From Nannocystis bainbridge (GTDB lineage: Bacteria; Myxococcota_A; Polyangia; Nannocystales; Nannocystaceae), in assembly GCF_028368995.1 (NCBI RefSeq), contig NZ_JAQNDL010000001.1, forward strand, positions 4,448,001 to 4,512,000: a stretch of 64,000 nt of DNA, in the 5' to 3' direction. Numbering within the stretch: position 1 is the first letter of the stretch; each line of letters opens with the position of its first letter. Under the pieces are notes generated by a model, which was not told the DNA's origin, ran no database searches, and worked only from the letters and a program-made list of their open reading frames with translations. Both the position numbers and the translations under genes were made by a program. Positions 1,657 to 63,739 of this stretch are shown one piece after another.

Positions 1657-1726
1657 TGACTGAAGGGGCATGTCCGAGCGGACATGCCCCTGGGGGCATG
1701 TCTCAAGGCGCATGCCCGAACGTTCA
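1657..1726. repeat. Tandem array of five degenerate 14-bp TGTCC-N4-GGACA units
   Basis: CATG junctions at 1669, 1683, 1697, 1711 (exact 14-nt period); fills the gap between convergent genes. Confidence 0.85.
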
Positions 1727-4342
1727 GGCCGTCTCGGCGGCGGCGCGGCGCTTGTTGTCGCGGTCGAGCCGGCGCCAGCGCAGGCCGGCGGCGCCGACCA
1801 CGACCACGCTGACGAGCACGAGCCACGGGACCTGCGGCGACTTGGGCTTCTTCTTGTTCCACGCGTTCTGGTGGTTCTTCACCCACGGGCGGAACTCGCC
1901 GGGCGCGAGCAGGGGCAGGCCGTGGCGGGCGCGGATGGTGTTGGGCAGCTGCGCGTTGATGTCGCCGCACTCGCCGGTGTAGACGAGCTTGCGGAAGCGG
2001 TTGGCCGCGAGCCGCTCCTCGGGCTTGTAGGGGCCGTTCTTGGCGACCTCCTCCGGCGTCGGGATCGCGTAGGAGAGCTTGTAGAGCTCGACCTTCTTGG
2101 GCGCCTGGCCGCCGTGCTTGAGCGCCCAGTCGCGGCAGACCCACCGCGCGTGCCACTTCTGGTACCAGTCGCCCTTGCCGCCCTCGCCGCCGATGATCCG
2201 GCGGTTGATCTTGCGCTGGCGGGTGTAGCCGAGCCACGGGATCGGCTTGTTGTCGGGGTGGTAGACGTCGGTGTTGAGGTCGTAGGCGCCGCCGTCCTGG
2301 TCGGTGACGATGACCTGCATGAAGACGTTGCTGCGCGGCGGGTTGGGCGCGAACATCTTCCAGCCCTGCGCGGTCTGGCTGGTCCGGACCCACCACTTGA
2401 ACGGCTCCTGCGCGCGCACCCGCCAGCCGTCCTTGCCCTCGCCGCCGAGGCTGTCTTTCTCGGGCAGCAGCCAGATCGCCACGCCGGTGCAGTGATAGAC
2501 GACGAACGCGCCGGCGAGGAAGCGGCCCATCGAGCCGTAGGCCCACGGCCGCCGCGGGCGCCCGGTGAACGGGTCGATGACGGACAGCTGCGCCGCGCCG
2601 CGCCGCTGCGCGACGCCGAAGCCGATCACCGCCAGGCCGGCGAAGATCACCGCGCCGGTGGCCGCCCACGGGACCCCGAGGTCGGTCTCGGCGACGACGT
2701 AGACCCCGCCGACCGCGACCACCAGGGCGCCAGCCAGCGCCCACGCCGGCAGCGCGGCGGCGTCGCGGTGGAGGTGCGGCAGGGTCGGGTCCTCGGCCGG
2801 CAGCGGGGCGTCGCCGCGCGTGATGTCCTTCGGGACAGGTAGTCCGAGCCGCCCGAGCCGCTCGCCGATCGCCCGCAGCAGGAAGGCGACCTCGCTGCCG
2901 TTGAGGAACGCGACGTAGGTGGCCATCGTCGCCGGCGTGAACCAGCCGATGTTCATCATCACGATCAGGTGCGCGTGGAAGATGAGGCCGAGGCCGAGCC
3001 ACAGGCGGCGGCCGAGGAACCAGGTGCAGAACCAGTCGAGGTCGAGGGTGAGGCGATGGCCGCGGACCGCGATCGTGGGCGGGCGACGGCCGAGCCAGAA
3101 GAACAGCCCGCCGATCGCGGCCATGCCGGCCAGCCAGGCCACCGGGAACCACCGCTGCCAGGTCGCCAGGCTGGCCATGCCGCCGCGCGCCACCGCCGGG
3201 ATGTGGAACGGCAGGGTGATGTAGACGACGACCAGGCCGACGAGGCCGAGGCCGAGCCAGCAGGCGCGCACGGCCCAGCGCTGCCACTCGGGCAGCGGCG
3301 GCAGCTGCTCGCGGCGGACGAACCGGGTCACCAGGCCGAGCACGACCAGGGGGAACAGCGCCTCCCAGTAGTGGACGACGATCGTGTTGATGCGGAACAG
3401 GTTGGTGCCGAACACGGCCGACAGCTGCTGCGGCTCGAAGCGGTAGAAGTGGTCGAGGTTGAGCGCGTAGTAGAACGCGTCGCCCTTGGCCCACACGTCG
3501 CCGTTCTTGACGGTGCCGGTCGAGCAGTAGAGCGCGGCGAGCTGCAAGATCATGATCATCCGCGGCCAGGCGGGGATCAGCCGGTACACGGCCTCGAGGC
3601 CCTGCGGGTGCTGGGGGGTCGGAGCGAGGCCGGCGCCGGCGCCCGGGCCGTCGCGCTCGCTGAGCCGGCCCTGCTTGCGCAGTCGACGGCAACGCAGCCA
3701 GTTGTCGACGCTGTAGGCGGCGCCGCAGCGCGACAGGCACAGGTAGAGGAGGAAGCAGCGGTAGACGTTCTCGGTGCCCTCCCAGAACACCTGGTTGCGC
3801 AGGATGATGGCGTGGAACAGCAGCAGCGTGAGCCACTTGGTGACGTTCGTCTTGAAGCCGACGATCATGCACACGCAAGCGACCTCGAACGCGCCGAGCA
3901 CCAGCCAGAAGGCGGTCGGCGAGTCCCAGAAGAACAGCGGCGAGTACTTGGGCCCCTTGAGCCACTCGACCACGCCGCCCCAGTCGAAGAAGCCGTAGGG
4001 CTCGGGGTCGATGCCGTCGCCGAAGCCGACGAACTGCTCCTTGGCGAACACCTCGCGCGCGACGTCGGTGAGGAACAGGCCCTCGTCGGTGAAGAGGTAG
4101 ACGAAGAGGTCGGACAGGCCGTTGATGTTGGCCAGGGTGACGAGGCCGAAGACGATGCGGAAGAGGCCCATCGTCCGCGGGTCCTCGGCGCGCAGGAACA
4201 GCCGTCGGAACGCCTCGCGGTGGAAGATGCAGGCGCTCACGAAGAAGACGAAGCCGAGCAGCATCCACCAACCGACGGTCGGCGAGAGCGCGAGCGCTTC
4301 GGCGTTGGGGATCCGTTCGTCCGCGAGTAAGCCCAGCAGCAT
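1724..4342 (-). CDS. HTTM-domain (SdpB / vitamin K-dependent carboxylase-like) membrane protein with C-terminal SdpA/DUF5819-like domain, paralog 2
   Basis: GLFRIVFG, YSVD, QLAALYCSTGTVKNGDVWAKG and GLIFHAHLIVMMNIGWF HTTM motifs; later QGWKMFAPNPP. Confidence 0.8.
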   Translation of the reverse strand: MLLGLLADERIPNAEALALSPTVGWWMLLGFVFFVSACIFHREAFRRLFLRAEDPRTMGLFRIVFGLVTLANINGLSDLFVYLFTDEGLFLTDVAREVFAKEQFVGFGDGIDPEPYGFFDWGGVVEWLKGPKYSPLFFWDSPTAFWLVLGAFEVACVCMIVGFKTNVTKWLTLLLFHAIILRNQVFWEGTENVYRCFLLYLCLSRCGAAYSVDNWLRCRRLRKQGRLSERDGPGAGAGLAPTPQHPQGLEAVYRLIPAWPRMIMILQLAALYCSTGTVKNGDVWAKGDAFYYALNLDHFYRFEPQQLSAVFGTNLFRINTIVVHYWEALFPLVVLGLVTRFVRREQLPPLPEWQRWAVRACWLGLGLVGLVVVYITLPFHIPAVARGGMASLATWQRWFPVAWLAGMAAIGGLFFWLGRRPPTIAVRGHRLTLDLDWFCTWFLGRRLWLGLGLIFHAHLIVMMNIGWFTPATMATYVAFLNGSEVAFLLRAIGERLGRLGLPVPKDITRGDAPLPAEDPTLPHLHRDAAALPAWALAGALVVAVGGVYVVAETDLGVPWAATGAVIFAGLAVIGFGVAQRRGAAQLSVIDPFTGRPRRPWAYGSMGRFLAGAFVVYHCTGVAIWLLPEKDSLGGEGKDGWRVRAQEPFKWWVRTSQTAQGWKMFAPNPPRSNVFMQVIVTDQDGGAYDLNTDVYHPDNKPIPWLGYTRQRKINRRIIGGEGGKGDWYQKWHARWVCRDWALKHGGQAPKKVELYKLSYAIPTPEEVAKNGPYKPEERLAANRFRKLVYTGECGDINAQLPNTIRARHGLPLLAPGEFRPWVKNHQNAWNKKKPKSPQVPWLVLVSVVVVGAAGLRWRRLDRDNKRRAAAETA

Positions 4343-4353
4343 GTGCGGGGATT

Positions 4354-4383
4354 AAAACAAAAGGCCCGGCGTGATGCCGGGCC
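4354..4383 (-). terminator. Intrinsic terminator between the two HTTM paralogs
   Basis: GGCCCGGC/GCCGGGCC stem (4363-4383, 5-nt loop) followed on the minus strand by TTTTGTTTT. Confidence 0.7.
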
Positions 4384-4405
4384 CTTCGCTGTGAGAAGCC
4401 GTGCC

Positions 4406-62705: not shown

Positions 62706-62829
62706 TTATCTCGGGGACATGTCGTTCGGGACATGTCCGGTTCGGCGGTGAGCGGGGCGGCCGTCGCCGATCGGTGAGGATCGATCGTTGTCTTGGAGAC
62801 ATGTCGTTGTGGACATGTCGTTTGGGACA
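62706..62829. repeat. Two 14-bp unit clusters between convergent genes
   Basis: CATG at 62718/62732 and 62800/62814, CAT at 62828. Confidence 0.82.
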
Positions 62830-62844
62830 TCTATATTAAAGAAC

Positions 62845-63624
62845 TCAGCGGTTGAAGAACACAGGCAGCTCGGCGATGGGGACGAAGCCGAGGCGGGCGA
62901 GGATCGGGGCGGAGGTGTCGGCGCGGGCGTGGGTGGTGACGAGCTTCAGGCCGCGAGCGGCGGCGTGGCGGACGCGGGCGGCCAGGAGCGAGCGGTAGGC
63001 GCCGCGCGAGCGGTGGCCTTCGAGGATGACGGCGCCGATGAGGAAGGCCGAGCGCGCGAGGGCGCTGTAGTTGCCGATGCCGACCGGCTCGCCGCCACGA
63101 CTGGCGAGGAAGAAGTGGTTGCGATCGTCGGTGGGGTCGGCGAGGACCGAGCGCTGATAGGCGAGCAGCGGGGCCGGGTCGGTGTTCCAGCCGCGGCCTG
63201 TGACCTCGGCGTGGAGCTCGACGTTGTGAGGACCGACGCGCTCGACGAGGATGTCGTCGGCCTCGGGGATCTTCAGGGCGTCGATGGCGGCGGCCATGAC
63301 GATGCAGGAGTCGCGGCGCAGGCCGCGGCGCGCGAGGCGATCGGCGAGGTCGAGGGGGCGGCAGTCGGGGGTGACGGTCCAGCGGAAGCGCAGGCCTTGG
63401 GCTTCGTACTGGGCGAGCGTGGCGTCGATGACGGCCTCGACCTCGTGGTCGCCGAGGCGAGCGAAGGCGACCTCGTTGAAGCCGCCGCGGCGGAAGGAGG
63501 GCGTGAGGATCTGGAACCAGTCGGGGCGCTCGTAGACCTGGATGTCGGCGAAGCCGCCGCGCGCGAGGCGAGGCGAGACGAGGGCCTCGTGCAGGAGTTC
63601 GTCGCGGGTGAAGCCGGCGAGCAT
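62845..63624 (-). CDS. GNAT-family N-acetyltransferase
   Basis: GAVILEGHRSRGAYRSLL acetyl-CoA motif A; SAPILARLGF motif B; start at MLAGF. Confidence 0.82.
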   Translation of the reverse strand: MLAGFTRDELLHEALVSPRLARGGFADIQVYERPDWFQILTPSFRRGGFNEVAFARLGDHEVEAVIDATLAQYEAQGLRFRWTVTPDCRPLDLADRLARRGLRRDSCIVMAAAIDALKIPEADDILVERVGPHNVELHAEVTGRGWNTDPAPLLAYQRSVLADPTDDRNHFFLASRGGEPVGIGNYSALARSAFLIGAVILEGHRSRGAYRSLLAARVRHAAARGLKLVTTHARADTSAPILARLGFVPIAELPVFFNR

Positions 63625-63697
63625 GGGCGCAGGGTAGACGAATTCGGGGCGGCAGGCGCGGCCGGGCCGGCGGAGGTCGCGGCGCCCCGGCGTCACA

Positions 63698-63739
63698 TGT
63701 CGGTGAGGACATGTCCATCGGGACATGTCGTGAGGGGCG
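63698..63739. repeat. Three tandem 14-bp units
   Basis: TGTCGGTGAGGACA-TGTCCATCGGGACA-TGTCGTGAGGGGCG directly after the stop at 63741. Confidence 0.82.

Follow-up and report, generated by a model that had tools for sequence, protein, structure and literature searches.

A hyper-abundant 14-bp dyad tiled through the Nannocystis bainbridge genome: a candidate lineage-specific DNA recognition word

Our analysis has shown that a 64,000-nt stretch of the Nannocystis bainbridge genome (C1:4448001-4512000; hereafter, the window) carries many copies of one short palindrome, the 14-bp dyad TGTCC-N4-GGACA (TGTCCNNNNGGACA), and that the same dyad pervades the whole assembly (11.05 Mb, 71.5% GC, five contigs). 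The dyad is in large excess, follows a strict spacing rule, has half-sites that vary independently, is conserved across species, has a biased placement between genes and is confined essentially to one genus. Based on these observations, we give somewhat better than even odds to the view that it is a lineage-specific, hyper-abundant DNA recognition word, of the class of HIP1 and the DNA-uptake signals, which would be read by a symmetric factor. A dimeric reader and its biological role are what we infer from the patterns described below.

Abundance, spacing and read-out of the dyad

The window holds 21 exact copies of the dyad; 100 dinucleotide shuffles averaged 0.05 and never exceeded 1. When at most one mismatch is allowed, 57 sites are found versus 1.9 expected, and by our own calls there are about 23 intergenic dyad loci. 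The genome contains 1,987 exact dyads versus 3 copies of a control word that was reversed without being complemented, and 6,195 sites with at most one mismatch. Among all genomic dyads of the form 5-N4-5, TGTCC-N4-GGACA is the commonest, though four of its ten arm bases are A or T. An earlier note on this stretch had proposed an iterated palindrome. It is real and stands far above both the shuffles and the reversed control; every position at which that note had placed a cluster has a unit at it or within a few tens of bases.

The units also obey a strict spacing rule. Seven site pairs in the window abut at exactly 14 nt, and nine period-14 arrays were detected there with Tandem Repeats Finder. 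Across the genome, distances between the CATG tetramers found at unit junctions peak at 14, 28, 42, 56 and 70 nt (3,736, 2,073, 1,586, 751 and 383, respectively), against an off-period background of 72 at 13 nt and 262 at 15 nt. Sites with at most one mismatch form 475 pairs at 14 nt and none at 13, 15, 18 or 19 nt; their distances peak solely at multiples of 14, apart from a small peak at 36 nt that is due to coding repeats. In-register chains of at least two CATG number 2,066, the longest having 12. The exact 14-nt period that had been read off the window is thus borne out by both measures. When the spacer between TGTCC and GGACA was varied from 0 to 12 nt, N4 alone was enriched, each of the spacers of 0-3 and 5-12 nt giving at most four coding copies. 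With the half-sites in the reverse order (GGACA..TGTCC), N0 alone was enriched.

Array units conform to the consensus TG-Y-C-C-N4-G-G-R-CA. Exact dyads sit in a conserved word of more than 14 bp, which reads R-C-M-TGTCC-N4-GGACA-K-G-Y (784 coding and 1,154 intergenic copies), and the G at position 2 and the C at position 13 are almost invariant. The centre makes use of 221 of the 256 possible tetramers (6.99 bits), with A avoided at position 5 and T at position 8. Neighbouring centres are identical in 75 of 1,670 pairs, versus 246 of 20,000 random pairs; this above-chance identity indicates some local duplication, while most units of an array are not recent copies of one another. The earlier claim that arms and phase are conserved and the centre is free therefore holds for the arms and the phase, but the centre is nearly rather than fully free and neighbours are slightly alike. 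Ordinary slippage had been set aside, correctly, since the centres are near random and multi-unit arrays have no dispersed copy. At the R-CATG-Y junctions of arrays throughout the genome, ACATGC and GCATGT exceed expectation and GCATGC is depleted (mutual information 0.04); as follows from the extended consensus R-C-M...K-G-Y, the preferred flanks of one unit are the outer letters of the neighbouring unit. The junction GGACATGTCC is identical to the p53 half-site. The P53 domain (PF00870) was looked for without success, its control likewise having no match anywhere, and the literature matches listed for GGACATGTCC mostly concern p53, with none describing a bacterial repeat.

The behaviour of variants indicates that sequence, rather than the pairing of the arms, is read. 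In confident coding cores, the 30 single-position arm variants amount to 1,429 copies against 190 expected (7.5-fold), whereas the 15 double variants that preserve Watson-Crick pairing amount to 171 against 277 expected. At G2 and C13 no change is tolerated, compensated or not. There was no Y/R pair covariation in 2,471 array units (mutual information 0.007) and none across the mirrored junctions of arrays with at least three units (mutual information approximately 0.001). Centres of 1,537 units, oriented by the upstream gene, showed neither a strand bias nor a preference for stable RNA tetraloops (TTCG 44, CGAA 44). Together with the lack of dispersed copies and of a REP-associated tyrosine transposase (RAYT; REP, repetitive extragenic palindromic), these results argue that the sequence is read and not the pairing. 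They point to a direct read-out with two-fold symmetry, for which the most economical reader would be a protein dimer that acts on duplex DNA; less probably, the reader would be a hairpin binder with sequence specificity. The earlier note had favoured a binding site for a dimeric protein. Two-fold symmetric, sequence-specific recognition is indeed statistically preferred to a hairpin, while the dimer itself is a step that we infer.

Placement in genes, in gaps and across genomes

The dyad had been described as intergenic, but a large share of its copies are coding. Genes were called crudely by codon-position composition (7,906 genes, 84% coding), and Pfam matches back the calls in the window. 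By these calls, coding sequence contains 12 of the 57 window sites with at most one mismatch and 823 of the 1,987 exact genomic dyads. In the confident coding cores (5,404 genes with 60 nt trimmed from each end, 7.2 Mb) there are 674 exact dyads; five codon shuffles gave 0-4 and ten gave 3.5 on average, which makes the excess approximately 190-fold. The coding share of exact copies is 34-41%, depending on the gene set, and the cores carry about 0.29 sites per kb. All three frames are used (396/226/52), so that different peptides are encoded and no single peptide explains the coding copies. These copies are evenly spread along genes and sit in variable or disordered protein stretches, even by way of rare codons and against codon preference.

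An example from the window is the gene for PBP1A, in which three dyads fall in the inter-domain linker and the C-terminal tail. The sister-genus orthologue (66% identity) has different codons and amino acids at the three dyads and a degenerate dyad at one. No 14-nt insertion was seen at any of the three when the orthologues were compared, which indicates that coding copies arise by substitution. The densest clusters in the genome, with 9-12 sites each, also lie in genes (C2:2066859-2067347, C2:1217434-1217808 and C3:661272-661664). They correspond to low-complexity linkers of large proteins, two of which resemble Ser/Thr kinases, with peptide repeats such as ..PVPADMS.. and ..EAVPADSQ..; array-like DNA may make up part of these linkers.

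Between genes, the dyad has a strong bias to 3' ends that the earlier note had missed. At least one site with at most one mismatch is present in 741 of 1,449 convergent gaps (51%), and in 67% of those of 100-200 nt; for tandem gaps the share is 20% (of 5,005) and for divergent gaps 16% (of 1,447). Site density per kb is 4.94 in convergent, 1.85 in tandem and 0.63 in divergent gaps, and convergent 3' gaps are about 17 times denser in the motif than coding sequence. Of the arrays with at least five junctions, convergent gaps hold 170, tandem gaps 82, divergent gaps 4 and coding sequence 4; the gap DNA available to them is 300 kb convergent, 983 kb tandem and 513 kb divergent. The first unit of an array lies a median of 16-21 nt past the upstream stop and about 217 nt before the next start codon. 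The arrays do not have the make-up of intrinsic terminators (a GC-rich hairpin with a T/U tract), and no T-tract appears in the profile of their 3' flanks. Canonical hairpin and T-tract terminators are rare in this genome: a strict scan found them in 3-6% of convergent gaps. They occur in 53 of 1,121 convergent gaps (Fisher p = 0.08 versus dyads), too few for a test of mutual exclusion.

Exact copies occur at about 18 per 100 kb (range 2-43) on all five contigs. Dyad density correlates with local GC (r = 0.57) and is lower in the lower-GC bins. The earlier note had remarked that copies are sparse before about 17 kb of the window; there are indeed few, but this marks no domain boundary, as that part of the window holds the rRNA operon (10003-15069), which is the motif-free stretch at 9.3-15.4 kb. 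GC skew is positive across the window and negative over most of contig C1, and a skew switch, either origin or terminus, is probably located near C1 4.4 Mb.

All ten same-genus genomes carry the dyad, in 114-2,090 copies, with 1-6 copies of the reversed controls. Two other genera of the family have 87 and 161 copies, six further genera have at most 5, and 12 other families have at most 7 each. A double unit is present in 8 of the 10 congeners and in 0 of 20 other genomes searched. In a scan of 185,579 species, with one genome each, 78 double-unit stretches were found: 64 in Nannocystis, 9 in one Nannocystaceae metagenome-assembled genome (MAG), 2 in one Myxococcales MAG and 3 strays. A scan of viral contigs returned one contig with one small array. 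The comparison across Nannocystaceae that the earlier note had proposed thus confines tiled arrays to Nannocystis-type genomes, the sister genus having single dyads alone. A 400-kb sample of the sister genus with 161 copies contained 47 sites with at most one mismatch (37 coding, 6 tandem, 4 convergent, 0 divergent), and no arrays, no 14-nt periodicity and no alternative enriched dyad were found in it. The presence of single dyads without arrays indicates that single dyads came first and that tiling is an elaboration of Nannocystis.

The whole window is syntenic in five congeners, with a coding identity of approximately 80-93%. In a 408-kb span aligned to one congener, arm identity is 0.955 for 29 coding dyads, whose own flanks reach 0.81 and whose centres reach 0.845. 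In 19 of these 29 every one of the ten arm bases is retained, compared with 41% of 580 phase-matched controls. For 20 aligned intergenic dyads the corresponding values are 0.89 for arms, 0.49 for centres and 0.64 for flanks, figures that the aligner has possibly flattered; of the 103 dyads in the span, 46 (42 intergenic) were not alignable. Among those listed of 13 orthologous gaps, relatives usually carry units after the same stop codons, with different unit numbers and centres, and the remainder of the gap is unalignable. At the two-unit array that begins at 56382, six species retain the outer TG/CA together with most arm bases, and the centres differ. Every one of the five relatives has one or two deviating bases in the left arm of the first unit, and in one of them (G003) the second unit is degraded. 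Centres likewise drift at 31585 and 47664. That arms and register persist while their surroundings drift indicates purifying selection or a continuing sequence-specific drive.

Dyad-bearing features and other elements of the window

The dyad features of the window are listed here by window position. Their strand is given as "." throughout, and the strands of genes are in brackets.

1657..1717 (.), array of about three to four units with an exact dyad at 1671-1684, just after the stop of gene 1427-1654(+) and facing the convergent gene 1724-4342(-)
2824..2837 (.), single exact coding dyad in gene 1724-4342(-), kept in five of six species
18886..18912 (.), gap that separates genes 17521-18741(-) and 19196-20125(+), with about two degenerate units
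23893..24202 (.), dyad cluster in a convergent gap past the stop of gene 22463-23887(+), including a local 68-70-nt tandem repeat with two units per copy
28123..28180 (.), units filling the convergent gap between genes 27368-28120(+) and 28185-28781(-)
31054..31081 (.), units lying immediately past the stop of the PBP1A gene 31094-33412(-)
31457..31470 (.), coding dyad of PBP1A, in its variable C-terminal part, exact in the N. bainbridge genome alone
31585..31612 (.), coding dyad in PBP1A with a partial second unit; arms identical in six of six species, centre TCGG, TTCG or TTGG
32648..32661 (.), coding dyad in the inter-domain linker of PBP1A, identical in six of six species
33449..33462 (.), dyad with one mismatch, lying 37 nt upstream of the start of PBP1A, identical in six of six species
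39789..40156 (.), 9-10 dyads, mostly TGTCCGCGAGGACA, on a local tandem repeat (39-nt period) that lies downstream of the cyclase gene 40195-42246(-)
43692..43740 (.), array filling a convergent gap past the stop of gene 42726-43688(+)
46550..46757 (.), convergent gap with a single dyad right after the stop of gene 45830-46546(+) and an array of three to four units at 46668-46757
47664..47677 (.), single dyad in a divergent gap; arms kept in six of six species, centre altered in one
49459..49545 (.), array of about five to six degenerate units between the xanthine-dehydrogenase-type genes 47967-49442(+) and 49552-51990(+)
52073..52216 (.), convergent gap 51991-52214 with two arrays; relatives have different units in the same place
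54254..54267 (.), lone exact dyad, 20 nt past the stop of gene 54287-56245(-)
56382..56409 (.), two-unit array in a divergent gap (by our gene calls), 43 nt before gene 56452(+), aligned in six species
57532..57590 (.), array that begins at the stop of gene 56452-57534(+)
59993..60075 (.), convergent gap that follows gene 58669-59988(+) and is filled by units
60874..60933 (.), a lone dyad plus an array of two units, past the stop of gene 60952-61692(-)
62706..62829 (.), convergent gap 62684-62845 with two short arrays
63698..63739 (.), array of three units taking up the 45-nt gap 63697-63741

The array at 56382-56409 could reflect either a regulatory use of the word or a small unannotated gene. 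Local tandem repeats lie at 39789-40156, 23903-24136 and 33558-33704, with periods of 39, 68-70 and 51 nt, respectively; each copy of the first two repeats holds one or two dyads. In the gaps 51991-52214, 60665-60952 and 63697-63741, relatives hold extra genes of 0.5-2.4 kb beside or between dyad units, which indicates that arrays often border accessory-gene insertions.

The rRNA operon (10003-15069, + strand) comprises 16S (10003-11531), 23S (11840-14782) and 5S (14953-15069) genes. It has no dyad inside and accounts for the 55-57% GC stretch of the window. At gathering thresholds, Rfam matched the three rRNAs alone in the entire window. A classical GC-hairpin and T-tract terminator follows the 5S rRNA gene, at about 15075-15105. 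Pfam scans of 38 called proteins and a laxer scan of 12 unassigned ones gave no DNA-binding candidate in the window, in agreement with the earlier remark that no cognate protein gene is evident there.

A candidate recognition word, its rivals and its relatives

The 190-fold genic excess, the conservation of the arms, the absolute spacing, the independent half-sites, the restriction to one lineage and the accumulation in the least constrained DNA place the dyad with HIP1 and the uptake sequences, and not with REPs, terminators or operators. It is the combination of coding copies with a bias to gene 3' ends that makes HIP1-like and DNA-uptake-signal-like motifs the class of comparison. We predict that a two-fold symmetric, most likely dimeric, sequence-specific factor reads a word of about 20 bp, R-C-M-TGTCC-N4-GGACA-K-G-Y, on duplex DNA. 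Purifying selection or a sequence-specific drive on the DNA itself would retain the copies, and selection or drive for many copies would write the word wherever it is tolerated. It would accumulate in variable or disordered protein stretches and, above all, in the DNA just past stop codons. Because the flanks of a unit (..ACA next to TGT..) spell the start of the next one, new units would nucleate most easily in an exactly abutting 14-bp register, and tiled arrays with unrelated centres would form without slippage.

As to the role of such a word, we lean slightly towards a 'self-DNA' signal for uptake, recombination or methylation, as has been argued for HIP1; by that analogy it would have the better precedent for the invasion of coding sequence. 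Almost as probable, in our view, would be a genome-wide architectural protein, with dense arrays coating gene 3' ends, along which a protein might conceivably polymerise. A bolder form of the proposal, which we put forward tentatively and consider rather doubtful, is that of an undescribed, genome-wide Nannocystis 'self' word read by a dimeric protein. In one version it would be an uptake or recombination signal, the first in Myxococcota, palindromic and bipartite, with tiled 'super-sites' behind two-thirds of the mid-length convergent pairs. In the other, a protein would coat the 14-bp-phased arrays, each dimer turned by about 120 degrees relative to the one before it, and would turn them into bidirectional insulators or terminators in a genome nearly without classical terminators; the two versions share the same doubtful standing between them. 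ComEC, DprA and ComEA-like genes are present in the genome and are near-universal.

Several points weigh against a genome-wide word read by a symmetric factor. With its eight-fold asymmetry between convergent and divergent gaps and its high occupancy, the pattern resembles a local function at gene ends rather than passive accumulation. Judging by the convergent excess and an occupancy of 51-67%, dense arrays may act there in addition or instead, for example through a bound protein that serves as an insulator or roadblock. Single-unit elements show a modest symmetric covariation (G-C 144 versus 72 expected). As RNA, arrays are predicted to fold into long, stable hairpins (z -1.9 to -6.8); that stability follows from the palindrome itself and is no sign that the fold is used. 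The rarity of canonical terminators leaves room for an RNA role at 3' ends. The sister genus, which lacks arrays, already has single dyads 2-15 nt past stops. A D12-class methyltransferase, the one class profiled, is present in 25 of 31 relatives, motif-poor genera included, without a phyletic link to the motif. We know of no uptake sequence that is a palindrome, and to our knowledge natural competence has not been documented for Nannocystis.

Foremost among the alternatives is a REP- or BIME-like (bacterial interspersed mosaic element) hairpin at gene 3' ends, acting as RNA or single-stranded DNA, the coding copies being secondary. We judge it improbable, if far from negligible. One palindrome would serve both genes of a convergent pair, and long hairpins would stop transcription or shield mRNA 3' ends from exonucleases. 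The position of arrays, close behind stops and well ahead of the next start, fits this idea, as do the 170 convergent versus 4 divergent arrays of at least five junctions, the occupation of 51% of convergent gaps and the rarity of canonical terminators. So do the predicted folds (-22 to -49 kcal/mol), which in five of six arrays beat all 200 shuffles. It has difficulty, however, with 674 conserved copies evenly spread in genes, with the deficit of pair-preserving doubles (171 versus 277) and the lack of stem covariation, and with the absence of a strand bias, of a stable-tetraloop preference and of a T-tract after arrays. Moreover, the rRNA operon of the window ends in a classical terminator and not in a dyad, and no Rfam family matched.

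Less probable still is that the word has no cellular function and is a by-product of mutational drive, for example a methylation-dependent repair of the very-short-patch type that turns near-matches into the motif. Such a drive would suit the cloud of one-mismatch neighbours around the consensus, enriched 7.5-fold, and the entry of the motif into coding sequence against codon preference. Elhai's model for HIP sequences offers a precedent in the part of the text available (PMC4390886). It would not lead one to expect arms better conserved than both flanks and matched controls, or so strong a preference for 3' over divergent gaps. The genome has a single D12-class methyltransferase domain, in a 679-aa open frame (C1:3591550-3592293, - strand), which is conserved across Nannocystaceae, motif-poor genera included, and does not track the motif in the profile of this one class.

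A lineage-specific selfish micro-repeat had been entertained in the earlier note; it is considered here as a mobile one, either a miniature inverted-repeat transposable element (MITE) or a REP, copied by a transposase in trans. High copy number, a range limited to one genus, copies in the gaps of convergent genes and the accessory genes beside arrays in relatives would all be in keeping with mobility, yet we consider this explanation very unlikely. A 14-nt unit cannot insert in frame, and the PBP1A orthologue shows substitutions rather than insertions, so that in-frame coding copies go unexplained. Centres are nearly random, coding and promoter-side copies are orthologous across six species, and a 71-nt array and the local composite repeats of 68, 51 and 39 nt have no dispersed copies in the genome. 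PF01797 (Y1/RAYT) had 0 matches in the 11-Mb assembly, which is 90.5% complete, the control matching 6 of 14 reference genomes. The absence of a Y1/RAYT match, together with copies in genes, also agrees with the earlier judgement that the dyad is no classical REP. The other candidate of the earlier note, a chromosome-domain site, considered here as a marker of the matS or parS kind restricted to one macrodomain, is the least credible of all. The local change of density in the window, with few copies before 17 kb, speaks for it, but copies are evenly spread over all five contigs and the sparse stretch holds the rRNA operon. Known domain markers have orders of magnitude fewer sites; the 6,195 sites counted here are neither tens of copies nor confined to one region.

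HIP1 (Highly Iterated Palindrome 1, GCGATCGC), which cyanobacteria carry along with alternate HIPs, is the closest analogue of the Nannocystis dyad. Both HIP1 and the dyad are short palindromes with an excess of two orders of magnitude, both occur inside open reading frames (ORFs) as well as between them, are conserved between related genomes beyond background and are confined to a lineage, and for neither is the function settled. The text of PMC5861425, as far as it is available, gives HIP1 an over-representation of 15-300-fold, with conservation within and between ORFs. In the same portion of that paper, Xu et al. take the conservation pattern of HIP1 as evidence for selection rather than replenishment. 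The approximately 190-fold excess of the dyad in coding sequence falls within that range, and the dyad, too, is conserved across species within and between ORFs. HIP1 has also been linked to methyltransferases (PMC4390886, available part), and the accessible portion of PMC13756078 states that it enhances transformation and may be an uptake signal. No cognate orphan methyltransferase is known for the dyad, with the D12 class alone profiled and without a phyletic link. In form the two differ: HIP1 is a contiguous GC-rich 8-mer, whereas the dyad is bipartite (5-N4-5, about 20 bp with its flanks). Unlike HIP1, the dyad also tiles at exactly 14 nt, concentrates in convergent 3' gaps and sits in Myxococcota.

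The DNA uptake sequences (DUS) of Neisseriaceae and the uptake signal sequences (USS) of Pasteurellaceae occur in thousands of copies, settle in tolerant protein stretches, form lineage 'dialects' and often lie as inverted pairs just downstream of genes. The dyad resembles them in being hyper-abundant in the coding and non-coding DNA of one lineage; however, DUS and USS are asymmetric words, and the Nannocystis unit is itself a dyad. With REPs and BIMEs it shares a high-copy palindrome, gene 3' ends, convergent gaps and regular clusters. It differs from them in that its units abut head-to-tail rather than alternate around spacers, pairing is not conserved, 34-41% of copies are coding and no RAYT was found. 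By definition, REPs seldom overlap coding regions (PMC12306157 and PMC2817692, in the parts available). Cooperatively bound, register-tiled operator units include MetJ metboxes, Fur boxes, omega-repressor heptads, ParR iterons and phage 'stoperators'. Such operator arrays comprise tens of sites at promoters or centromeres or in a phage genome, in contrast to about 6,000 dyad sites over an 11-Mb chromosome, concentrated at 3' ends. We found no description of the Nannocystis repeat in the literature searched, a search whose scope excluded supplements and subscription journals.

HIP1-like and uptake words are rare natural experiments, in which an entire genome, with its coding sequence, came to be rewritten as the carrier of a signal. 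For 30 years HIP1 has gone without an explanation, and the Nannocystis dyad would be a second case, unrelated to it, and a tractable system for the same question. The genus is culturable and has several complete genomes, the motif is information-rich (about 20 bp with absolute spacing), the arrays would be strong baits, and the sister genus, with single dyads and no arrays, represents an intermediate state. Who reads such words, and why, would thereby become directly testable. The annotation of Nannocystis genomes is affected as well, for two-thirds of their mid-length convergent gaps and many of their disordered protein linkers appear to have been shaped by this word.

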